NCBI RefSeq assembly: GCF_000193735.1
Contig: NZ_AEPF01000080.1
Span: 1 to 32,000, forward strand
DNA from: Neisseria sicca 4320
Lineage (GTDB): Bacteria > Pseudomonadota > Gammaproteobacteria > Burkholderiales > Neisseriaceae
Reading direction: 5' to 3'
DNA: 32,000 nucleotides
Both the position numbers and the translations under genes were made by a program. The notes beneath the pieces are model-generated. The model made no database searches and was not told the DNA's origin. It saw nothing but the letters and a program-made list of their open reading frames with translations. Positions 1,195 through 9,045 of the stretch are shown in pieces. Every line of letters begins with the position of its first letter. Position 1 is the first letter of the stretch.

Positions 1195-2247
1195 ATGAAT
1201 CCCGATGCCGTATATGCCGATATGGAGTCAAATCCATCAGATGCCGAAATCAATAAAAAGCTGTGTTCTAAGCTGGATGCCAATCATTTTAATTTTGAAT
1301 ATCCCGACCGATTTAGTAAACAGAACACATATTTTAACGGTAAAAGTCGAATATGCGTTGTTGAATTCAATGTTTTGAGAGCGGTTGGGACTCTATCTGA
1401 GGGGGATACGGCAATGTCGGAAACACGTTGGCTGGAACGCGTCCCAAAAGAAAAAGAACCCATACCGCAAAGCGTATTTGATAAAGCCGTCCAGCCATCC
1501 GCCGATGCCAGCCCGTCAAAATATGTTGGCGCAACTGCCAATCAAGACGGCAGTGTACTAGGCGAATCGCAAGGCAATCCAACCGTATCGAATGGAACAG
1601 TCATCACACTTGGTCCCGCAACAGGTCCGGACGGAAAGCCTGTACAAGTAACGATAACTTTTAATACCCCATCTGGCGGCAATAAATCGGCAGACGTAAA
1701 AGTAACCCTGCGTCCCGACCTCACACCGGGCAGTCCTGCCGCTCCGAATTACACGCCTGCTCCCGTCCCTCCGCCTGCAACAACCCCTACAACAACACCG
1801 GGCGATAATGGCAAACCCGATGGAAAGCCGAATGAAACACCTGAAGACAATCCGAAGGACAACCCTAAACCCGACCCTGACGGTAAAGACGACCCAAAAC
1901 CCGACGACAAGCCTAAAGAGGATGACAAGCCTAAAGAAAGCGGCGGTTTGTTGTGTGAAGTATTTCCCAACATCTTGGCATGCGACAAAATGGGTAAGCC
2001 CGAAGAAGGTATGTTTGACAGCATTAAAATACCCCACATAACTGATGAAACCACGTGGAATACTGACAACTTCCTACCGCCAAACGGCGTTTGTCCTCAA
2101 CCCAAAAGCTTCAACATTTGGGGCAGACCGGTACAAATCAGCTACGAACCGCTCTGCGTATTTATGCAAAATATCCGTTTTGCTGTTTTACTCGGATTCA
2201 TTATCATGTCCGCCTTTATCGTTTTCGGCTCTTTAAGAAAGGGATAA
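1195..2247 (+). CDS. pIII/TspB-like phage adsorption (minor coat) protein, C-terminal part
   Basis: A long Pro/Lys/Asp-rich linker (PAPVPPPATTPTTTPGDNGKPDGKPNETPEDNPKDNPKPDPDGKDDPKPDDKPKEDDKPKE) is followed by a Cys-containing domain and a C-terminal membrane anchor (FAVLLGFIIMSAFIVFGSLRKG). It sits directly upstream of the pVI-like and Zot-like genes, as ORF6/TspB does in meningococcal Nf/MDA phages. Confidence 0.6.
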   Translation: MNPDAVYADMESNPSDAEINKKLCSKLDANHFNFEYPDRFSKQNTYFNGKSRICVVEFNVLRAVGTLSEGDTAMSETRWLERVPKEKEPIPQSVFDKAVQPSADASPSKYVGATANQDGSVLGESQGNPTVSNGTVITLGPATGPDGKPVQVTITFNTPSGGNKSADVKVTLRPDLTPGSPAAPNYTPAPVPPPATTPTTTPGDNGKPDGKPNETPEDNPKDNPKPDPDGKDDPKPDDKPKEDDKPKESGGLLCEVFPNILACDKMGKPEEGMFDSIKIPHITDETTWNTDNFLPPNGVCPQPKSFNIWGRPVQISYEPLCVFMQNIRFAVLLGFIIMSAFIVFGSLRKG

Positions 2248-2251
2248 TAAT

Positions 2252-2545
2252 ATGCCACTGCTCGCCGGATTGATTCCTCTTTTGGGAATCCTGTTAAAAA
2301 TGCTGATTGTCCGCATGATTATTGCCACCGGCTTAACTTTTGTTACATACGCCGGTTATGTAATCGCATTGGGTAAATTCAAGGAATACACCTTAAATGC
2401 TTTTAACTCCATGCCATCTGATATTCTCAATTTGCTGTTAATTGGTGGTTTTGGCGAAGGTTTGGGTTATTTGTTTGGCGCATTCTCTTTTTATATCGGC
2501 ATGGCTGCCTTGAATAAATTGACTTTCGTTTCTCCCGCGGGGTAA
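2252..2545 (+). CDS. small multi-TM phage protein, pVI-like minor coat protein (DUF2523-like)
   Basis: A 97-aa protein with three hydrophobic segments, tightly packed between the pIII-like gene (4-nt gap) and the Zot-like gene (3-nt gap). This is the canonical inovirus position. Confidence 0.6.
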   Translation: MPLLAGLIPLLGILLKMLIVRMIIATGLTFVTYAGYVIALGKFKEYTLNAFNSMPSDILNLLLIGGFGEGLGYLFGAFSFYIGMAALNKLTFVSPAG

Positions 2546-2548
2546 TTC

Positions 2549-3724
2549 ATGATTTATCTTTTCACCGGCAACATGGGCACGGGCAAGACTTCGCGAGTAG
2601 TGTCCATGATTCTGAACAACGAAGACGGTTTGTTTAAGATGAAGCTTGAAGATGGTACTGAAGTAGATCGCCCGCTTTACTTCTGCCATATCGACGGCTT
2701 GGATAAACGTAAATTTAACGCGCATGAAATTACTGAAGAAGAAATCATGTCTGCACCGTTGCGCGATATTATTCCGCAAGGCGCCGTCTTGATTGTTGAT
2801 GAAGCACACTATACCTATCCTGTGCGCGCATCAGGTCGCCCCGTTCCTCCCTATATCCAAGAATTAACCGAACTGCGCCACCACGGCCATACGGTTATCT
2901 TGATGACCCAGCACCCAAGTCAGCTTGACGTATTTGTACGCAATCTCGTGTCAAAACATACCCATCTTGTACGTAAAGCCGTGGGTATGAAGCAGTATTC
3001 TTGGTATAACTGTGTTACGAACCTTGATAATCCCGCCGGTGTTGCAGGCGTTGAATCTTCAAGTTGGAAGCCTCCAAAAGAAGCTTTTAAATATTACAAA
3101 TCCTCAAGTCAGCATCAGAAGTTTAAAAAGAATATTCCGCTTGCTGTTTGGGCTTTGATAGGTATATTTGCTTTCATGGCTTGGAAAGGCTACAACGTTT
3201 ATCAGATCTATCAGCAAGGCATTGGCCAACAAGAACAGGTTGAACAACAGGAAGCAGCCGCCAGTCAGCCGCAAATGGTGTTACCAACGGAATTAAACGA
3301 TCAAACGGCCAAAATTGATAACAGCCTAAACCCGACAGACTTTATCCCCACGTTGGCAGAAAAACCCGAATCCAAACCGCTTTACGACAGCGTGCGCCAA
3401 GTTAAAACCTTTGAACGCTTGGCCGCTTGCATAGATGGCGGTAAAAGTGGTTGTACCTGTTATAGCGACCAAGGCACGGCTTTGAAAGAAGTGACTAAGG
3501 CAATGTGTAAAGACTATGTCAAAAACGGCATGCCGTTTAATCCTTACAAAGACCCAAGCCCGACAGCACAGGCAGCGCCTGCACCGCAAAGCCTGCCAGC
3601 AACGACAGAATCAAACCAAATACTGACAATGGGCGGCAAATCGCCACAGAATTTGATGTATGACGGCTATGTCGAAGCAGGAGCGCAATTCCAACAGCGC
3701 GGCGGTATTGTTGGCACTAATTAA
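2549..3724 (+). CDS. Zot-like / pI-type filamentous phage assembly ATPase
   Basis: Walker A GNMGTGKT at residues 7-14 and Walker B LIVDEAH. A single central TM segment (IPLAVWALIGIFAFMAWKGY) is followed by a Cys-containing periplasmic C-terminal domain. This matches the Zot (PF05707-type) architecture. Confidence 0.85.
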   Translation: MIYLFTGNMGTGKTSRVVSMILNNEDGLFKMKLEDGTEVDRPLYFCHIDGLDKRKFNAHEITEEEIMSAPLRDIIPQGAVLIVDEAHYTYPVRASGRPVPPYIQELTELRHHGHTVILMTQHPSQLDVFVRNLVSKHTHLVRKAVGMKQYSWYNCVTNLDNPAGVAGVESSSWKPPKEAFKYYKSSSQHQKFKKNIPLAVWALIGIFAFMAWKGYNVYQIYQQGIGQQEQVEQQEAAASQPQMVLPTELNDQTAKIDNSLNPTDFIPTLAEKPESKPLYDSVRQVKTFERLAACIDGGKSGCTCYSDQGTALKEVTKAMCKDYVKNGMPFNPYKDPSPTAQAAPAPQSLPATTESNQILTMGGKSPQNLMYDGYVEAGAQFQQRGGIVGTN

Positions 3725-4029: not shown

Positions 4030-4992
4030 ATGAGAAACGCTGTCGGTTTGGATATATCGCAAAACACCTTTGATGCTGCCGCTATTGTCAACGGTCAACG
4101 TAAGCAAGCCCTGTTTGACAACAGCATCAACGGCTTTGAAAACTTTAAAGCCTGGCTTGACGGTTTTGACTGTGAATTGCATATCTGCATGGAAGCAACC
4201 GGCAATTACTTTGAAGACGTTGCCGACTATATCGGCCAGTTTTACACCGTTTCCGTTATTAACCCTTACAAAATCAGCGAATACGGCAAAAGCCGCTTTC
4301 ACCGCACAAAAACAGACAAACAAGATGCAAGGCTTATTGCCGAATATTGCCATACGGCCATGCCCAAAGACTTACCCGCTCGGCAAAAAATAAGCATCGG
4401 TCACTACCGCTTGAAACGCTTATTGGCTCTGTACGAACAGCTCAAAACCCAAAAGACCGCACAAAAGAACAGGCTGAAAGTCGCTAAAGACGAATTTGTT
4501 CGAAAAATCCATCAAGCTCAAATCCAAGAATTGGATCAACACATTCAGCAAGCCGAAGCAGAAATACAGGCAATCACGAACGGCAATCAAGATTTGAAAA
4601 CCGTTTCAGAAGGCCTGCAAACCATTCCGGCCATTGGTAAACTGACAGCGGCCATACTCACAAACTATTTGCTTAGCGGCGACTTTAAAACCGCCAATCA
4701 ATTCACCGCCTTTGCCGGCTTGAATCCACAACAAAAAGAATCGGGAACCAGCGTCAAAGGTCGTTCAAGCATGACACGTTACGGAAACAGACGGCTAAAA
4801 GCCGCCCTGTTTATGCCTGCTATGGTTGCACTCAACAGGGATTACTTTCATGATTTTGTCAAACGCCTGAAAGCCAAAAACAAACCCAAGATGCTGATAT
4901 TGGGTGCTCTAATGCGTAAGCTGCTTGTCGTTGCTTACCACGTTTACAAAACACAAAAACCTTACAATCCTGAACGCTACAAACCTGCATAG
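4030..4992 (+). CDS. IS110-family (Piv/MooV, DEDD-type) transposase/recombinase
   Basis: The N-terminal motifs are GLDISQNTF, ICMEATGNYF, VSVINPYKISEYGKSRFHRTKTDKQDARLIAEY. The C-terminal motifs are LQTIPAIGKLTAAIL, FTAFAGLNPQQKESGTSVKGRSSMTRYGNRRLKAALFMPA. These are the classic IS110 DEDD and helix-hairpin-helix signatures. The position matches the pivNM/irg-type recombinase at the end of Nf prophages. Confidence 0.9.
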   Translation: MRNAVGLDISQNTFDAAAIVNGQRKQALFDNSINGFENFKAWLDGFDCELHICMEATGNYFEDVADYIGQFYTVSVINPYKISEYGKSRFHRTKTDKQDARLIAEYCHTAMPKDLPARQKISIGHYRLKRLLALYEQLKTQKTAQKNRLKVAKDEFVRKIHQAQIQELDQHIQQAEAEIQAITNGNQDLKTVSEGLQTIPAIGKLTAAILTNYLLSGDFKTANQFTAFAGLNPQQKESGTSVKGRSSMTRYGNRRLKAALFMPAMVALNRDYFHDFVKRLKAKNKPKMLILGALMRKLLVVAYHVYKTQKPYNPERYKPA

Positions 4993-6002: not shown

Positions 6003-6343
6003 CAAACCGCTAGAAATATTTAACAATTAGTAACAATTTATACCGCAAATATCTATTTTGTAGAATTCACTTTCAGAAATTTCACAATGAATATCAACTC
6101 AATAAGCATAAATATTTGAAAATTATTTCTGTTTAATTCTCCTTATTATCTCTTTCCCGGCTTTTACCCTAAATAAAATGTGGTTAAAAAACAACAACAC
6201 GAGACGAATATAGTTATTTTTTGGCTTAATAAACCTTTCCATATGTTTTTACCGAGACTTCTTGCCAAAACAGATTAAAACGCAACACATAGACAAACGG
6301 CAGTCATTCCACCTTAGACCTACAAATCCAAAACCACAAATAC

Positions 6344-6389
6344 AAAAAGGTCGTTTGAAACCTTAAATCTCAGTTTCAGACGACCTTTA
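6344..6389 (-). terminator. inverted DUS pair (one arm degenerate) forming the terminator hairpin of the 653-aa gene
   Basis: AAAGGTCGTTTGAAAC pairs with GTTTCAGACGACCTTT, 14 nt beyond the stop codon at 6403. Confidence 0.6.
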
Positions 6390-6402
6390 ATCAGCTTTAA
6401 AA

Positions 6403-8364
6403 CTACTGTTTACCGAACTGGCTGTAATCCACCACCATGTATTTGGCAGTAATTTTCTGCGAGGCGTTGCCTTCGTCGCCCATCAGAATCATCTGCGGCT
6501 TGCCGTTGACCGTAATCGAATCGACGGCTTCGACGTTGGTAATGTGGTGCAGATTGGGCAGCGAGATTTTTTGCGGTTCGTCGGTCGGGTTTCCGCTCCA
6601 AGTCCATAATTGCGAGAATTTCTGACCGGTTTCATCTTTCACTTCGTTGGCGATGACGTAGTTTTTCAACACGGGGTCGTAGTTGATAGAACGGATACCG
6701 CCGCCGTCGATGTCGAGAATGGCGACCTCGTCAAACTCAGGTTTGGCATTGCGCTCGAATACGTCTTTCGGGTTGCTGATGAATGCCACCAAAGCCATAT
6801 TGTTGAACTCAGGATCGCGGAAGCCTAAAACGAGGCGTTTCTTCACGGGATCAAACGCCATACCTTCGATATTGATTTCCTCAAAGGAAACCTCGGCTTT
6901 GGTGCGTTCGCGGATCAGGTCGTGCAGCTTCTTATCAGTTTCCAAAACCTGCGTCAGATTATCGTAGCTGGTCAGCCCCAACACATTGCCGTCTTGGATT
7001 TTAAAGCGCATCAAATGTTCGCGGTCGGGCGAGCGGTTGCCTTTGCGGGTGCGCGAATGCGAAGTGAGTGCGTAGATAAAGCCTTCATCGTCGCGCGCCA
7101 AAGCTTCCAAGTCGCTCAGACGGCGTTTGAAGCCGGTAATCACACGCGTATCCAAGGCTTCGTCTTCGACAAATCTGCCTGACGGATCGATGCTGATGAT
7201 GCTGAACGCGTGGTTGGGTTCGTCTTCGGCAATCAACAGTTTCCCGTCGGGAAGCTGTTGCACGGCGGAAGGCTCGTATACGCCGTTGAACATATTAATA
7301 CCCAAAGAGCGCAGCTCTGCCGCATTGTTGGCAGGCTTAGTTAAAAGAGAAGGCAATGTCTTCACGCCGATAAACGCCGCCAGCGAAGCCAAAAGCCCCC
7401 AGCGGAATACGGCATAAGACAAGTTGATGTATTTGAACTGTTTGTCCGCCAGCAAGCCCAGCCAGTAAAGATGGTCGCTCATCTTTTGATAGACTTGTTT
7501 ACGGTCGCCCATGATCTCTTGCATCATTTCCCAATATTGCTCTTTTTGCAACTTTACACGGTCTTCGTAAATCAGAATATTGGGCTGGCTACCGCTGAAA
7601 AAGCGGGTTTGTGTGCTGCTGAGGCGGGTTTTCAAATCACGCAGTTTGGCGCGCCCGCGGAAAAAATCCTTAAACCAAGTGCGTGCAGCCTGCATTTTGC
7701 CGATACGTTCGGGCGAAGCGGACAGAAGCGCGAACACGATGGAGGCGGCGGCGGTAATCATAAACGTACTCGCCGGAATCAGAAATTCGGGCGACGACGA
7801 GAAAATAAACGCGCCCGAAATCATCAGCGCAGACACGATAAAACCATTCAGCGAAATCATAATGTTCGCCTTGGTCGCCGCCAGTGCAAGCAGCTCCATC
7901 TCCGAACGCACGGCATTACGGAACATGGTTTCTACGCCTTTGTTCGTACCCAAAAGATCGGAAGGTGGCACATCGGCGAGTTGTCTTTGCTTCGTTCCCC
8001 TCTCTTTTTTGTCTTTCTTTTTCTTTTTGGTTTTTTCAGACGACGTTCCTATGCCTCCGAAGTTCGTGTTGTTCGTCGCAGCTTCTTCAGCATTGTACCC
8101 TTGCAGATTATTCTCCGTTTCAAATTGCACTGCCTCTTCAACTTTTAAAGTTTCTTCAGTTTTCAAGGGTTCTTTTACTTTCAAAGCTTCATCACCGTTT
8201 TCAAAAGCTTCATCTGCGCTCTCCCAAATTTCAGAAACAGGTTGCTCTGAAACAGGTTGCTGGGCATCAGGAGCGGGACGCTCAATAGGTTGGTCCCAAT
8301 CAGAAACTGTATTTTGCATATTTTGCGTCTCTTGACCTTCTTTATTTTTATTGTGGTAATCCAT
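6403..8364 (-). CDS. membrane protein: disordered acidic/Lys-rich N-terminus, PycTM/DUF5706-like TM module, and a C-terminal DUF3616/phytase-like beta-propeller-like domain
   Basis: Residues 143-333 read ...EMELLALAATKANIMISLNGFIVSALMISGAFIF..LIPASTFMITAAASIVFALLSASP.. Then comes a ~95-aa helical insert (NILIYEDRVKLQKEQYWEMM..DHLYWLGLLADKQFKYINLSY) and a third TM segment. Residues 360-653 show repeated strand-turn motifs (LLIAEDEP, FIYALTSHS, INIEGMAFDP, LVLGFRDP, GGIRSINYDP, ILMGDEGN). GGAG lies about 13 nt upstream of the ATG. Confidence 0.6.
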   Translation of the reverse strand: MDYHNKNKEGQETQNMQNTVSDWDQPIERPAPDAQQPVSEQPVSEIWESADEAFENGDEALKVKEPLKTEETLKVEEAVQFETENNLQGYNAEEAATNNTNFGGIGTSSEKTKKKKKDKKERGTKQRQLADVPPSDLLGTNKGVETMFRNAVRSEMELLALAATKANIMISLNGFIVSALMISGAFIFSSSPEFLIPASTFMITAAASIVFALLSASPERIGKMQAARTWFKDFFRGRAKLRDLKTRLSSTQTRFFSGSQPNILIYEDRVKLQKEQYWEMMQEIMGDRKQVYQKMSDHLYWLGLLADKQFKYINLSYAVFRWGLLASLAAFIGVKTLPSLLTKPANNAAELRSLGINMFNGVYEPSAVQQLPDGKLLIAEDEPNHAFSIISIDPSGRFVEDEALDTRVITGFKRRLSDLEALARDDEGFIYALTSHSRTRKGNRSPDREHLMRFKIQDGNVLGLTSYDNLTQVLETDKKLHDLIRERTKAEVSFEEINIEGMAFDPVKKRLVLGFRDPEFNNMALVAFISNPKDVFERNAKPEFDEVAILDIDGGGIRSINYDPVLKNYVIANEVKDETGQKFSQLWTWSGNPTDEPQKISLPNLHHITNVEAVDSITVNGKPQMILMGDEGNASQKITAKYMVVDYSQFGKQ

Positions 8365-8541
8365 ATTATCTTTATACTCCGTTTGAGTGAATCAATTTAG
8401 ATGGAAAGGAAAAGCGTTTTTTAGTTCCTTTTAGCCAAGATAATTTACATATCGATAAACATTATTGTTCAAAACATTACATTTATCGGAATAATACTTT
8501 TAGTAAATATTAATAAAGTAATATAATTTCTATTATTTCAG

Positions 8542-8576
8542 CAAAAACTGCCGCCAAACTTGATGTTTGCGGCAGT
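8542..8576 (-). terminator. Rho-independent terminator of the PepSY gene
   Basis: On the minus strand the sequence reads ACTGCCGCAAAC-ATCAA-GTTTGGCGGCAGT (one bulged base) followed by T5. It lies 22 nt after the stop codon at 8598. Confidence 0.65.
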
Positions 8577-8597
8577 CTTAAACCATTGTTAATCAGA

Positions 8598-8882
8598 TTA
8601 GTAATCGATGCGCTCTTTGATGATTCTTAAGTCGGGGTAAGACAATTTGATGTCGTATTCGCGACCGCCTTTATAGGCCTCTACTTCCAACACGGGTCTT
8701 CCGCGATAGTCGTCAGCATCGATATCGTGAACGCGGTAACCGCGTTGTTCAAGCATTCTGATGGCTTTTGCACGGTTTTGTTCGAAATTTCTGTCGCTGT
8801 AAATTTGGTGTTCAATGTAATCGCTTGCACCAGCAGTAGCGGCGGTCAGAGCAACGATAGCGGTCAATAATAATTTTTTCAT
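8598..8882 (-). CDS. small secreted PepSY-domain protein
   Basis: The signal peptide is MKKLLLTAIVALTAATAGA|SD. The PepSY-like pattern is AIRMLEQRGYRVHDIDADDYRGRPVLEVEAYKGGREYDIKLSYPDLRII. AGGAAG lies 6 nt upstream of the ATG. Confidence 0.65.
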   Translation of the reverse strand: MKKLLLTAIVALTAATAGASDYIEHQIYSDRNFEQNRAKAIRMLEQRGYRVHDIDADDYRGRPVLEVEAYKGGREYDIKLSYPDLRIIKERIDY

Positions 8883-9045
8883 GATCGACTTCCTTTCGAA
8901 ATGTGTCGTTTGGGGTTTTGGTGAATGTGTATTTAAACACGGAAAAATTAGCAGTCATTTAGCACTTCGTAAAACGTAGTAAAGGTCGTCTGCAACATTC
9001 CAAATAACCTTTTAACATTTAATCTTTCTCCATTGCAGGCTGTGT

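Follow-up and report, generated by a model that had tools for sequence, protein, structure and literature searches.

Can a membrane module known from anti-phage defence belong to a protein with a routine physiological role? The question is raised by a gene of Neisseria sicca 4320 on the minus strand of a 32-kb stretch of contig NZ_AEPF01000080.1 (hereafter the window), whose 653-residue product joins a PycTM three-transmembrane (3TM) module to a predicted periplasmic beta-propeller. PycTM has so far been known only as the cyclase-triggered, membrane-disrupting effector of Pycsar/Pucsar defence, and here the same module is shown to occur in combination with a periplasmic propeller, in a family that is large, strongly conserved, and without a cyclase. 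An earlier reading of this DNA, made without database searches (the sequence-only reading), had proposed an anti-phage effector with the propeller as its possible trigger. Its open reading frame (ORF) was confirmed exactly, and all segments that it quoted (the lysine-rich patch, TM1, TM2, the helical region, and TM3) were located within it. The anti-phage framing was not supported by genomic context, by IMG/VR, by selection, or by the membership of the gene in a large chromosomal family. In our best reading the protein belongs to a large proteobacterial family, resides in the inner membrane, and works independently of a cyclase; it is not a Pycsar system. We propose tentatively, with a probability somewhat short of even, that it is a physiological membrane protein with a ligand-binding periplasmic propeller.

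The membrane module matches the Pfam PycTM model PF18967 with E=2.7e-12 and 47.5 bits (gathering cut-off 27.2), and the PADLOC PycTM model with E=3.3e-7 when the whole protein is searched and 1.2e-8 when only the module is; both bear out the identity given by the sequence-only reading. No NCBIfam model matches the protein. The module is composed of an amphipathic helix with an ETMFRNA motif, TM1, TM2, a cytosolic helical region with an insert of ~26 residues, and TM3. TM1 is the most conserved stretch of the protein, including the invariant polar residues K165, N167, S171, and N173, and its K-A-N-I-M-I-S-L-N-G motif occurs in canonical-type PycTM too. We obtained an end-to-end BLASTP alignment (24% identity, E=1e-16) with a 193-residue PycTM-type protein encoded at locus L040, in which the motifs KANIMIS-N, A-[ST]-[RS]-P, ‘LS.EEY’, and ‘KY..L..SY’ are common to both proteins and the main difference is the ~26 extra residues after TM2. 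The region described earlier as a ~95-residue helical insert is helical (residues 218-320), but by this alignment it is mostly the ordinary cytosolic part of the module rather than an insert.

Hydropathy, charge distribution, and an AlphaFold2 (AF2) model all gave three transmembrane helices with cytosolic helices between TM2 and TM3, the architecture that characterizes the pJV1-SpdB3/PycTM 3TM superfamily. As judged from sequence, these helices constitute a module homologous to PycTM/PucTM. According to a recent preprint, PycTM is classed within the pJV1-SpdB3 family of three-TM proteins, the effectors of this family are cyclase-associated, and EcPucTM forms, by electron cryomicroscopy, a hexamer in which the TM2 helices line a ~15 Å channel (preprint 10.64898/2026.08.12.744502). 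The target shares with the PycTM/PucTM effectors the module itself, the order of its elements, KANIMIS-N in TM1, and the end of TM2 in A-[ST]-[RS]-P. In contrast to them, it has no partner cyclase in any context examined, carries a 300-residue periplasmic propeller after TM3, a 135-residue disordered N-terminal tail, and the extra residues after TM2, lies outside defence islands and phages, and is strongly conserved between species. The CBASS-type 2TM and SLATT-like effectors resemble it in concept, as small helical membrane modules that act as pore-forming effectors; however, its matches to the PADLOC ‘Effector 2TM’ models are weak and non-significant (E=0.0095-0.12), and it has no CD-NTase or SMODS partner. 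The L040 gene (L040:5884-6465) is, for its part, another orphan PycTM, a stand-alone gene on a viral contig of IMG/VR; within ~2.5 kb of it, no ORF of 100 residues or more encodes a cyclase, and the gene upstream on the opposite strand encodes a PAS-rich protein that, judged by eye, resembles a histidine kinase.

The C-terminal domain is a propeller of the DUF3616 type, as had been suspected: PF12275 matches with E=2.5e-7 and 30.9 bits (cut-off 20.6), the AF2 model contains an all-beta domain, and Foldseek returned propellers only. Of the two profiles that the sequence-only reading had singled out for residues 355-653, PF12275 was thus confirmed and PF13449 (Phytase-like) gave no match. Among 80 propeller relatives, the DUF3616 profile matched 70, the Phytase-like profile 48, and the SdiA-regulated profile 5. 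Invariant residues open the first strand of each apparent blade (YEPS, DLE, NIEG, GGIR, and NVE), and further invariant residues stand at adjacent strand ends (EDE, TSHS, RDP, and GDEG). The propeller is probably five-bladed, and the strand positions of the strictly conserved Glu, Asp, Arg, Ser, Thr, and His are those expected of a pocket around its axis. The domain belongs with the secreted DUF3616 (PF12275), Phytase-like (PF13449), and SdiA-regulated (PF06977) proteins, to which it is 30-45% identical with all invariant residues in common; those proteins, however, stand alone (~310-360 residues, with a signal peptide or lipobox), whereas the target propeller is tethered to the 3TM module.

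Structure comparisons were less informative about function. Foldseek searches of PDB and BFVD yielded only generic propellers (TM-score at most 0.5, ~10% identity), from which no function can be transferred, and sequence searches of PDB returned nothing meaningful with the single protein and only designed ‘Pizza’ propellers at E>0.01 with the propeller profile. Beta-propeller phytases and PhoX are similar to the target in the extracytoplasmic location of the propeller and the acidic residues that surround its axis, as well as in the adjacency of Pho-type genes at the level of the family, but the target has no sequence match or specific structural match to either, and catalysis is putative only. 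The only report found for the propeller group concerns a DUF3616 gene in a biofilm-defective transposon mutant of Xanthomonas (PMC3130047).

The AF2 model covers residues 136-653 as a single chain and was built on a family alignment of 117 sequences (mean predicted local distance difference test score, pLDDT, 89). It comprises a long helix containing the amphipathic segment and TM1, then TM2, the helical region, a long helix ending in TM3, a linker, and the all-beta domain. The helices of the module have pLDDT values mostly of 85-93, with TM3 carried by the helix 288-341 in full-length numbering, while the linker scores 55-62 and the all-beta domain 90-98. Lysines and arginines number 19 in the region between TM2 and TM3, none in the TM1-TM2 loop, and one in the segment after TM3. 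By the positive-inside rule, this distribution puts the polybasic patch of the tail and the TM2-TM3 region in the cytoplasm, and the TM1-TM2 loop and the segment after TM3 in the periplasm. A hydrophobic export leader on 65 of 79 stand-alone propeller relatives provides independent support for a periplasmic propeller. Thus the three transmembrane segments and the periplasmic propeller of the sequence-only reading hold as a prediction.

The N-terminal tail is of a different nature. Its composition and charge agree with the earlier description of an acidic, low-complexity part ending in a lysine-rich patch: residues 1-118 have a net charge of -13, and the polybasic Lys/Arg patch KTKKKKKDKKERGTKQR occupies residues 111-127. 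The tail is hypervariable across species, with a ratio of nonsynonymous to synonymous substitution rates (dN/dS) of 0.33-0.9 and an amino acid identity of 23-66%, versus 95-98% for the remainder of the protein. A variable tail and a K/R patch are nevertheless present in every family member. We regard the tail as disordered and cytoplasmic. Its coding region contains an imperfect tandem repeat (18 bp x3.3, at 8135-8194, found with Tandem Repeats Finder). Tail length varies among species, and the protein ranges from 596 to 657 residues.

Table 1. Features of the target gene, its surroundings in the window, and phosphate-related neighbours of its homologues at other loci
Feature	Position	Strand	Evidence or remark
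Target gene, complete coding sequence, 653 residues	6403..8364	-	ORF list; Pfam and PADLOC matches; orthologues
Acidic low-complexity tail ending in polybasic patch, residues 1-135	7960..8364	-	Composition, charge
PycTM / pJV1-SpdB3-type 3TM module, residues 136-345	7330..7959	-	Pfam, PADLOC, BLASTP, AF2
TM1, residues ~166-188, most conserved family motif	7801..7869	-	Conservation, 117 members
TM2, residues ~195-217, ends in conserved A-S-P-E-R	7714..7782	-	AF2 helices, homologues, conservation
TM3, residues ~320-341, continuous with long cytosolic helix, followed by low-confidence linker	7342..7407	-	AF2, homologue hydropathy
Beta-propeller, DUF3616 / Phytase-like / SdiA-regulated group, residues ~356-646	6427..7299	-	Pfam, AF2, Foldseek, relatives
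Intrinsic terminator, DUS-type hairpin arms followed by U-run	6346..6388	-	Fold -20.7 kcal/mol, z=-3.4
AT-rich upstream region with GGAG ribosome-binding site	8365..8597	-	27.5% GC, sequence
Upstream companion gene, 94-residue secreted PepSY_2 protein, own terminator	8598..8882	-	PF13670 E=5e-14; sequence
Two-gene cassette, PepSY plus target, 2.7 kb	6344..9013	-	blastn block 9013-6344 of the window
Filamentous (Nf-type) prophage genes TspB, DUF2523, Zot	1195-3724		
IS110-family (DEDD) transposase	4030-4992		1.4 kb from target gene
PsiE gene	L041-L044		Overlaps target start codon by 4 bp
Porin_O_P, phosphate-selective (OprO/P-type)	L052:359-1831		Immediately upstream of target
Porin_O_P	L057:1548-1979 and L124:8914-10272		Downstream of target
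DUF4956-VTC-PHO4-Phytase-like-porin cluster	Roseovarius L037:2393-7832		Upstream of target

If the protein were a Pycsar effector, a cyclase should be encoded next to it. We inspected the 32 kb of the window, as the part of the source genome covered for genes and cyclases, together with a sample of ~30 gene neighbourhoods that includes 86 neighbours from 19 non-Neisseria lineages, 11 loci with precomputed annotation, and five Neisseria/Kingella contexts. In the window, neither the immediate neighbours nor the larger ORFs yielded a cyclase, and with one exception no cyclase or other Pycsar component was found among the 86 neighbours (no PADLOC PycC), at the annotated loci, or among the genes flanking the target in the five Neisseria/Kingella contexts. 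The absence of an adjacent cyclase, noted earlier for the window, therefore extends to the neighbourhood sample. The exception, and the sole cyclase seen, was a class I adenylate cyclase of the housekeeping CyaA type, 2.7 kb from the target homologue at the gammaproteobacterial locus L125 with four genes between. Of the features expected of a Pycsar system, the target has the PycTM 3TM domain (PF18967) in the effector; an adjacent class III pyrimidine/purine cyclase in the same operon is absent, and so is a location in a defence island or mobile element, as the neighbours are housekeeping genes apart from one defence-like helicase, no fusion copy was found in IMG/VR, and the nearby prophage is missing from syntenic genomes.

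A PycTM effector could still be gated by a cyclic nucleotide made in trans by a cyclase encoded elsewhere, with the propeller as an accessory. The whole canonical module is kept, including its cytosolic helical part, NCBI uses the name ‘Pycsar system effector family protein’, and one locus does have the class I cyclase mentioned above. Against this, the described Pycsar and Pucsar systems are operons of cyclase and effector, no class III cyclase adjoins the gene in any of the ~30 contexts, PycC is lacking among the 86 neighbours, and the cyclase of L125 is a housekeeping enzyme separated from the gene by four others. We therefore regard control in trans as very unlikely.

The same neighbourhoods bear on a defence role of another kind, in which this single gene would suffice for abortive infection or protection against phage: the propeller in the periplasm would sense a cue from phage or from envelope breach and open the PycTM pore, and the membrane potential would collapse. 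Homologues of the membrane module are proven anti-phage effectors, and the lack of a cyclase calls for some other input. Propellers do act as phage receptor-binding modules, although the Foldseek matches obtained here are only generic. At one locus, a defence-like gene lies just upstream of the target homologue (L024:1890-7481, Kingella pumchi), encoding a fusion of DEAD and UvrD helicases of 1864 residues that matches the PADLOC models DpdF (2e-103), PsyrT (2e-82), and GajB, and that is likely a defence gene. It is, however, the only defence-like neighbour in ~30 contexts; the remaining neighbours are housekeeping genes, as are those at all 11 annotated loci. A conserved operon partner across the family was likewise rejected, given that no Pfam family occurs more than twice among the 86 neighbours.

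Distribution and selection are also difficult to reconcile with such a system. An exhaustive search returned 1908 representatives at E<1e-3, of which 148 remained at E<1e-30, and a family profile recovered at least 628 fusion clusters in Neisseria, Paracoccus, Roseovarius, Thiomargarita, Allochromatium, and many metagenomic Proteobacteria, all with the same layout of variable tail, K/R patch, ETMFRNA motif, three TM helices, and propeller. The fusion is a large chromosomal family across Proteobacteria, and no fusion copy was found in the 2.9 million viral contigs of IMG/VR. Comparison with orthologues in N. sicca, mucosa, flavescens, and subflava gave dN/dS values of 0.03-0.04 in the 3TM module and of 0.02-0.04 in the propeller, with dS reaching ~1. 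This shows housekeeping-grade purifying selection on both functional domains, and the diversification expected of a phage-facing sensor is not seen. In addition, the invariant propeller pocket recurs in hundreds of secreted proteins that stand alone and lack a pore module, and in other lineages the gene is translationally coupled to PsiE or adjoins phosphate porins. Even with the mobility of the gene among Neisseria species described below, we consider a one-gene defence system unlikely. Since the defence reading fails on island location, mobile elements, and operon partner, and conflicts with selection, a physiological role is favoured.

Selection is equally relevant to a plainer explanation, that the 3TM module is a mere oligomerising anchor without channel function and the protein a membrane-tethered version of a secreted DUF3616 enzyme or binding protein. 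Most propeller relatives are soluble secreted proteins or lipoproteins, so that the fusion would add nothing but anchoring, and a stand-alone paralogue adjoins the fusion gene in N. canis and at locus L085. However, the strongest conservation in the protein falls on TM1 and its invariant polar residues, and the cytosolic helical region is constrained as well (dN/dS ~0.03), while a passive anchor requires neither such constraint nor a 200-residue three-helix module with a cytoplasmic domain. We give the passive anchor a low but appreciable probability. The two paralogues (L035:9926-10924 in N. canis and L085:7694-8692) lie directly downstream on the same strand; they encode 332-333 residues and are 57% identical to each other.

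Within Neisseria, the target and the PepSY_2 gene move together, the latter preceding the former in 27 of 33 Neisseria-type loci. Comparison by blastn with ~18 loci that have different flanks showed that nucleotide homology ends sharply at 9013 and 6344, which defines a two-gene cassette of 2.7 kb. At least six chromosomal contexts of the gene were found in Neisseria and Kingella. In this window and only three other loci, it is situated between tatC and an isochorismatase-family gene, and in the majority context between a hydrolase-methyltransferase fusion gene and DUF2238/queC; in the remaining contexts it lies beside aroD, beside ppiD together with the gene of an outer-membrane efflux protein, beside an ABC transporter gene and upstream of a stand-alone DUF3616 gene, or beside a large helicase gene. 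We rejected masking as a cause of the missing tatC at most loci, as there were no N runs and the context is truly different. The sequence-only reading had contrasted an accessory gene with one that is syntenic and universal in Neisseria, and the outcome is divided: the gene is widely conserved in commensals but is not syntenic. This shift of position as a small cassette counts in favour of the anti-phage explanation.

The prophage next to the gene does not. A filamentous prophage and an IS110 element at 1.4 kb are present as described earlier, but the block that contains them is inserted beyond 5148 and is absent at this site from all three genomes with the same tat/isochorismatase context (L006, L027, and L028). 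Its proximity is therefore incidental and specific to this strain, and the weight that had been placed on it is not justified. The AT-rich flanks are equally unremarkable. The low value at 6061-6120 was reproduced (23.3% GC), and the two flanks of the gene have 31% and 27.5% GC; the gene body, at 49.5%, is equal to the window at 49.9%, and the flanks are thus ordinary intergenic DNA with no sign of foreign origin. The gene contains a single core of the DNA uptake sequence (DUS), at 8035, as had been counted, but this is not an unusual scarcity (P=0.26) in a window with 43 mucosa-type DUS in 32 kb. With matching GC content and normal DUS density, nothing marks the target gene as foreign, and a foreign origin was rejected.

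What the physiological role could be is suggested by genomic context outside Neisseria. Genes of phosphate limitation adjoin the fusion gene in 5 of ~24 independent lineages (Table 1), where the target proteins are at most 54% identical. At generous rates of 1-5% per lineage, the binomial probability of reaching 5 of 24 by chance is ~4e-6 to 6e-3. The Roseovarius cluster is preceded by a Pho box scoring 15/18, a score reached by none of 300 shuffles. PsiE, the phosphate porins, and PHO4/VTC are the first genomic clues for the uncharacterised DUF3616/Phytase-like propellers.

On these grounds we can outline how the protein might work. By homology, the 3TM module would oligomerise into a ring as EcPucTM does, exposing a crown of propellers on the periplasmic side of the membrane. 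The propellers may bind or hydrolyse a small, conserved ligand of the periplasm; an anionic compound or one containing phosphate, together with a divalent cation, is the most plausible candidate, as has been suggested for the related ‘Phytase-like’ family. Coupling of propeller and ring could gate a conduit, or the ring could simply hold an enzyme at the membrane; in either case the role would lie in routine envelope or nutrient-limitation physiology. The more specific propositions are correspondingly weaker. That phosphate in particular is involved appears rather doubtful, and it is about equally doubtful that the Pycsar pore module can also act in the absence of a nucleotide signal, with a phytase-like propeller gating the channel from the periplasmic side. 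A pore gated from the periplasm could alternatively serve regulated autolysis or release, such as DNA donation, release of outer-membrane vesicles, or envelope remodelling. Neisseria are naturally competent and autolytic, the module is of a pore type, and its family takes its name from the Streptomyces Spd plasmid-spread proteins. Yet the neighbourhoods contain no pointers to competence, lysis, or secretion genes, and the family is widespread in non-competent marine Proteobacteria, which makes a release pore the least probable of the explanations considered here.

Several observations weigh against the physiological reading with a ligand-binding propeller. The phosphate neighbourhood is limited to ~5 of 24 lineages. 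No phosphate genes occur near the Neisseria loci, and a scan upstream of the Neisseria gene found no Pho-box-like site in the promoter (best score 12/18, no better than shuffles), so that the phosphate link is a hint at the level of the family and not a finding on this gene. The window protein itself does not match the Phytase-like model, which only its relatives reach, and neither the PDB sequence and profile searches nor Foldseek found a solved structure related to the propeller. The clustering of the invariant residues in one pocket is deduced from their strand positions, and oligomerisation and a channel are extrapolated from a canonical-type PycTM with 24% identity and from the preprint structure of a relative. 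Finally, a position that varies within one genus, here between at least six contexts, is characteristic of accessory genes, and defence genes are among these.

Should the module indeed act as a channel gated from the periplasm, PycTM would not be restricted to defence, and more than 600 clusters would represent an uncharacterised class of ligand-gated inner-membrane rings. The family could then be a widespread conduit or sensor of phosphate limitation, from which the defence effector was recruited, or else the first envelope-sensing single-gene abortive-infection system. The existence of this family raises the question whether the immune pore was derived from a physiological membrane ring coupled to the periplasm or was converted into one. 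Our literature search on DUF5706, DUF3616, PF18967, PF12275, and PF13449 yielded no publication that describes this architecture, in line with the sequence-only reading, which knew of no described system of the kind. In databases the proteins are already labelled by their domains, as NCBI names such proteins ‘Pycsar system effector family protein’ or ‘DUF3616 domain-containing protein’. The former automatic name should be treated with caution for genes of this kind.

For the biology of Neisseria, the gene encodes a conserved envelope protein of commensals that was not detected among pathogen representatives in a single scan. Close orthologues (76-98% identity) were identified in 33 species representatives, including N. 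sicca, mucosa, subflava, flavescens, perflava, oralis, and elongata, many unnamed Neisseria, and Kingella pumchi, and more distant ones in N. canis, N. arctica, and Neisseria sp. S1. No bona fide representative of N. meningitidis, N. gonorrhoeae, or N. lactamica matched in one exact-peptide-word scan, which cannot prove absence; two records under pathogen or lactamica names have an N. sicca-type context and are probably mislabelled.

The target gene is a self-contained transcription unit. Its own terminator, as claimed earlier, was recovered as a DUS-armed hairpin that includes a mucosa-type DUS at 6375 and coincides with one end of the cassette, where homology to loci in other contexts stops (~6344), and the AT-rich region upstream of the start codon presumably holds its own promoter. 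An Rfam search of the AT-rich flanks gave no match. Both ends of the cassette lie at DUS-like sequences. The DUS cores of the window are of the mucosa type GTCGTCTGAA in 43 copies, versus only one canonical GCCGTCTGAA, which corresponds to the N. mucosa/sicca dialect group, and identities of 96-98% to orthologues indicate that group as well.

The neighbours of the target gene in the window are the PepSY gene, tatC, and the isochorismatase-family gene, and the remaining window is core chromosome with the tat and his genes, a lactate permease, guaA, radA, a Ctp-type protease, an M23 peptidase, and plsY. In the majority context (L005:3757-6945 and equivalents), the region upstream of the cassette encodes a membrane protein of ~480-550 residues, a 195-residue protein, an Nm-ACP-like protein, and a Hydrolase_4 plus Methyltransf_20 fusion of 580-615 residues, a set that may represent a lipid- or surface-modification cluster.

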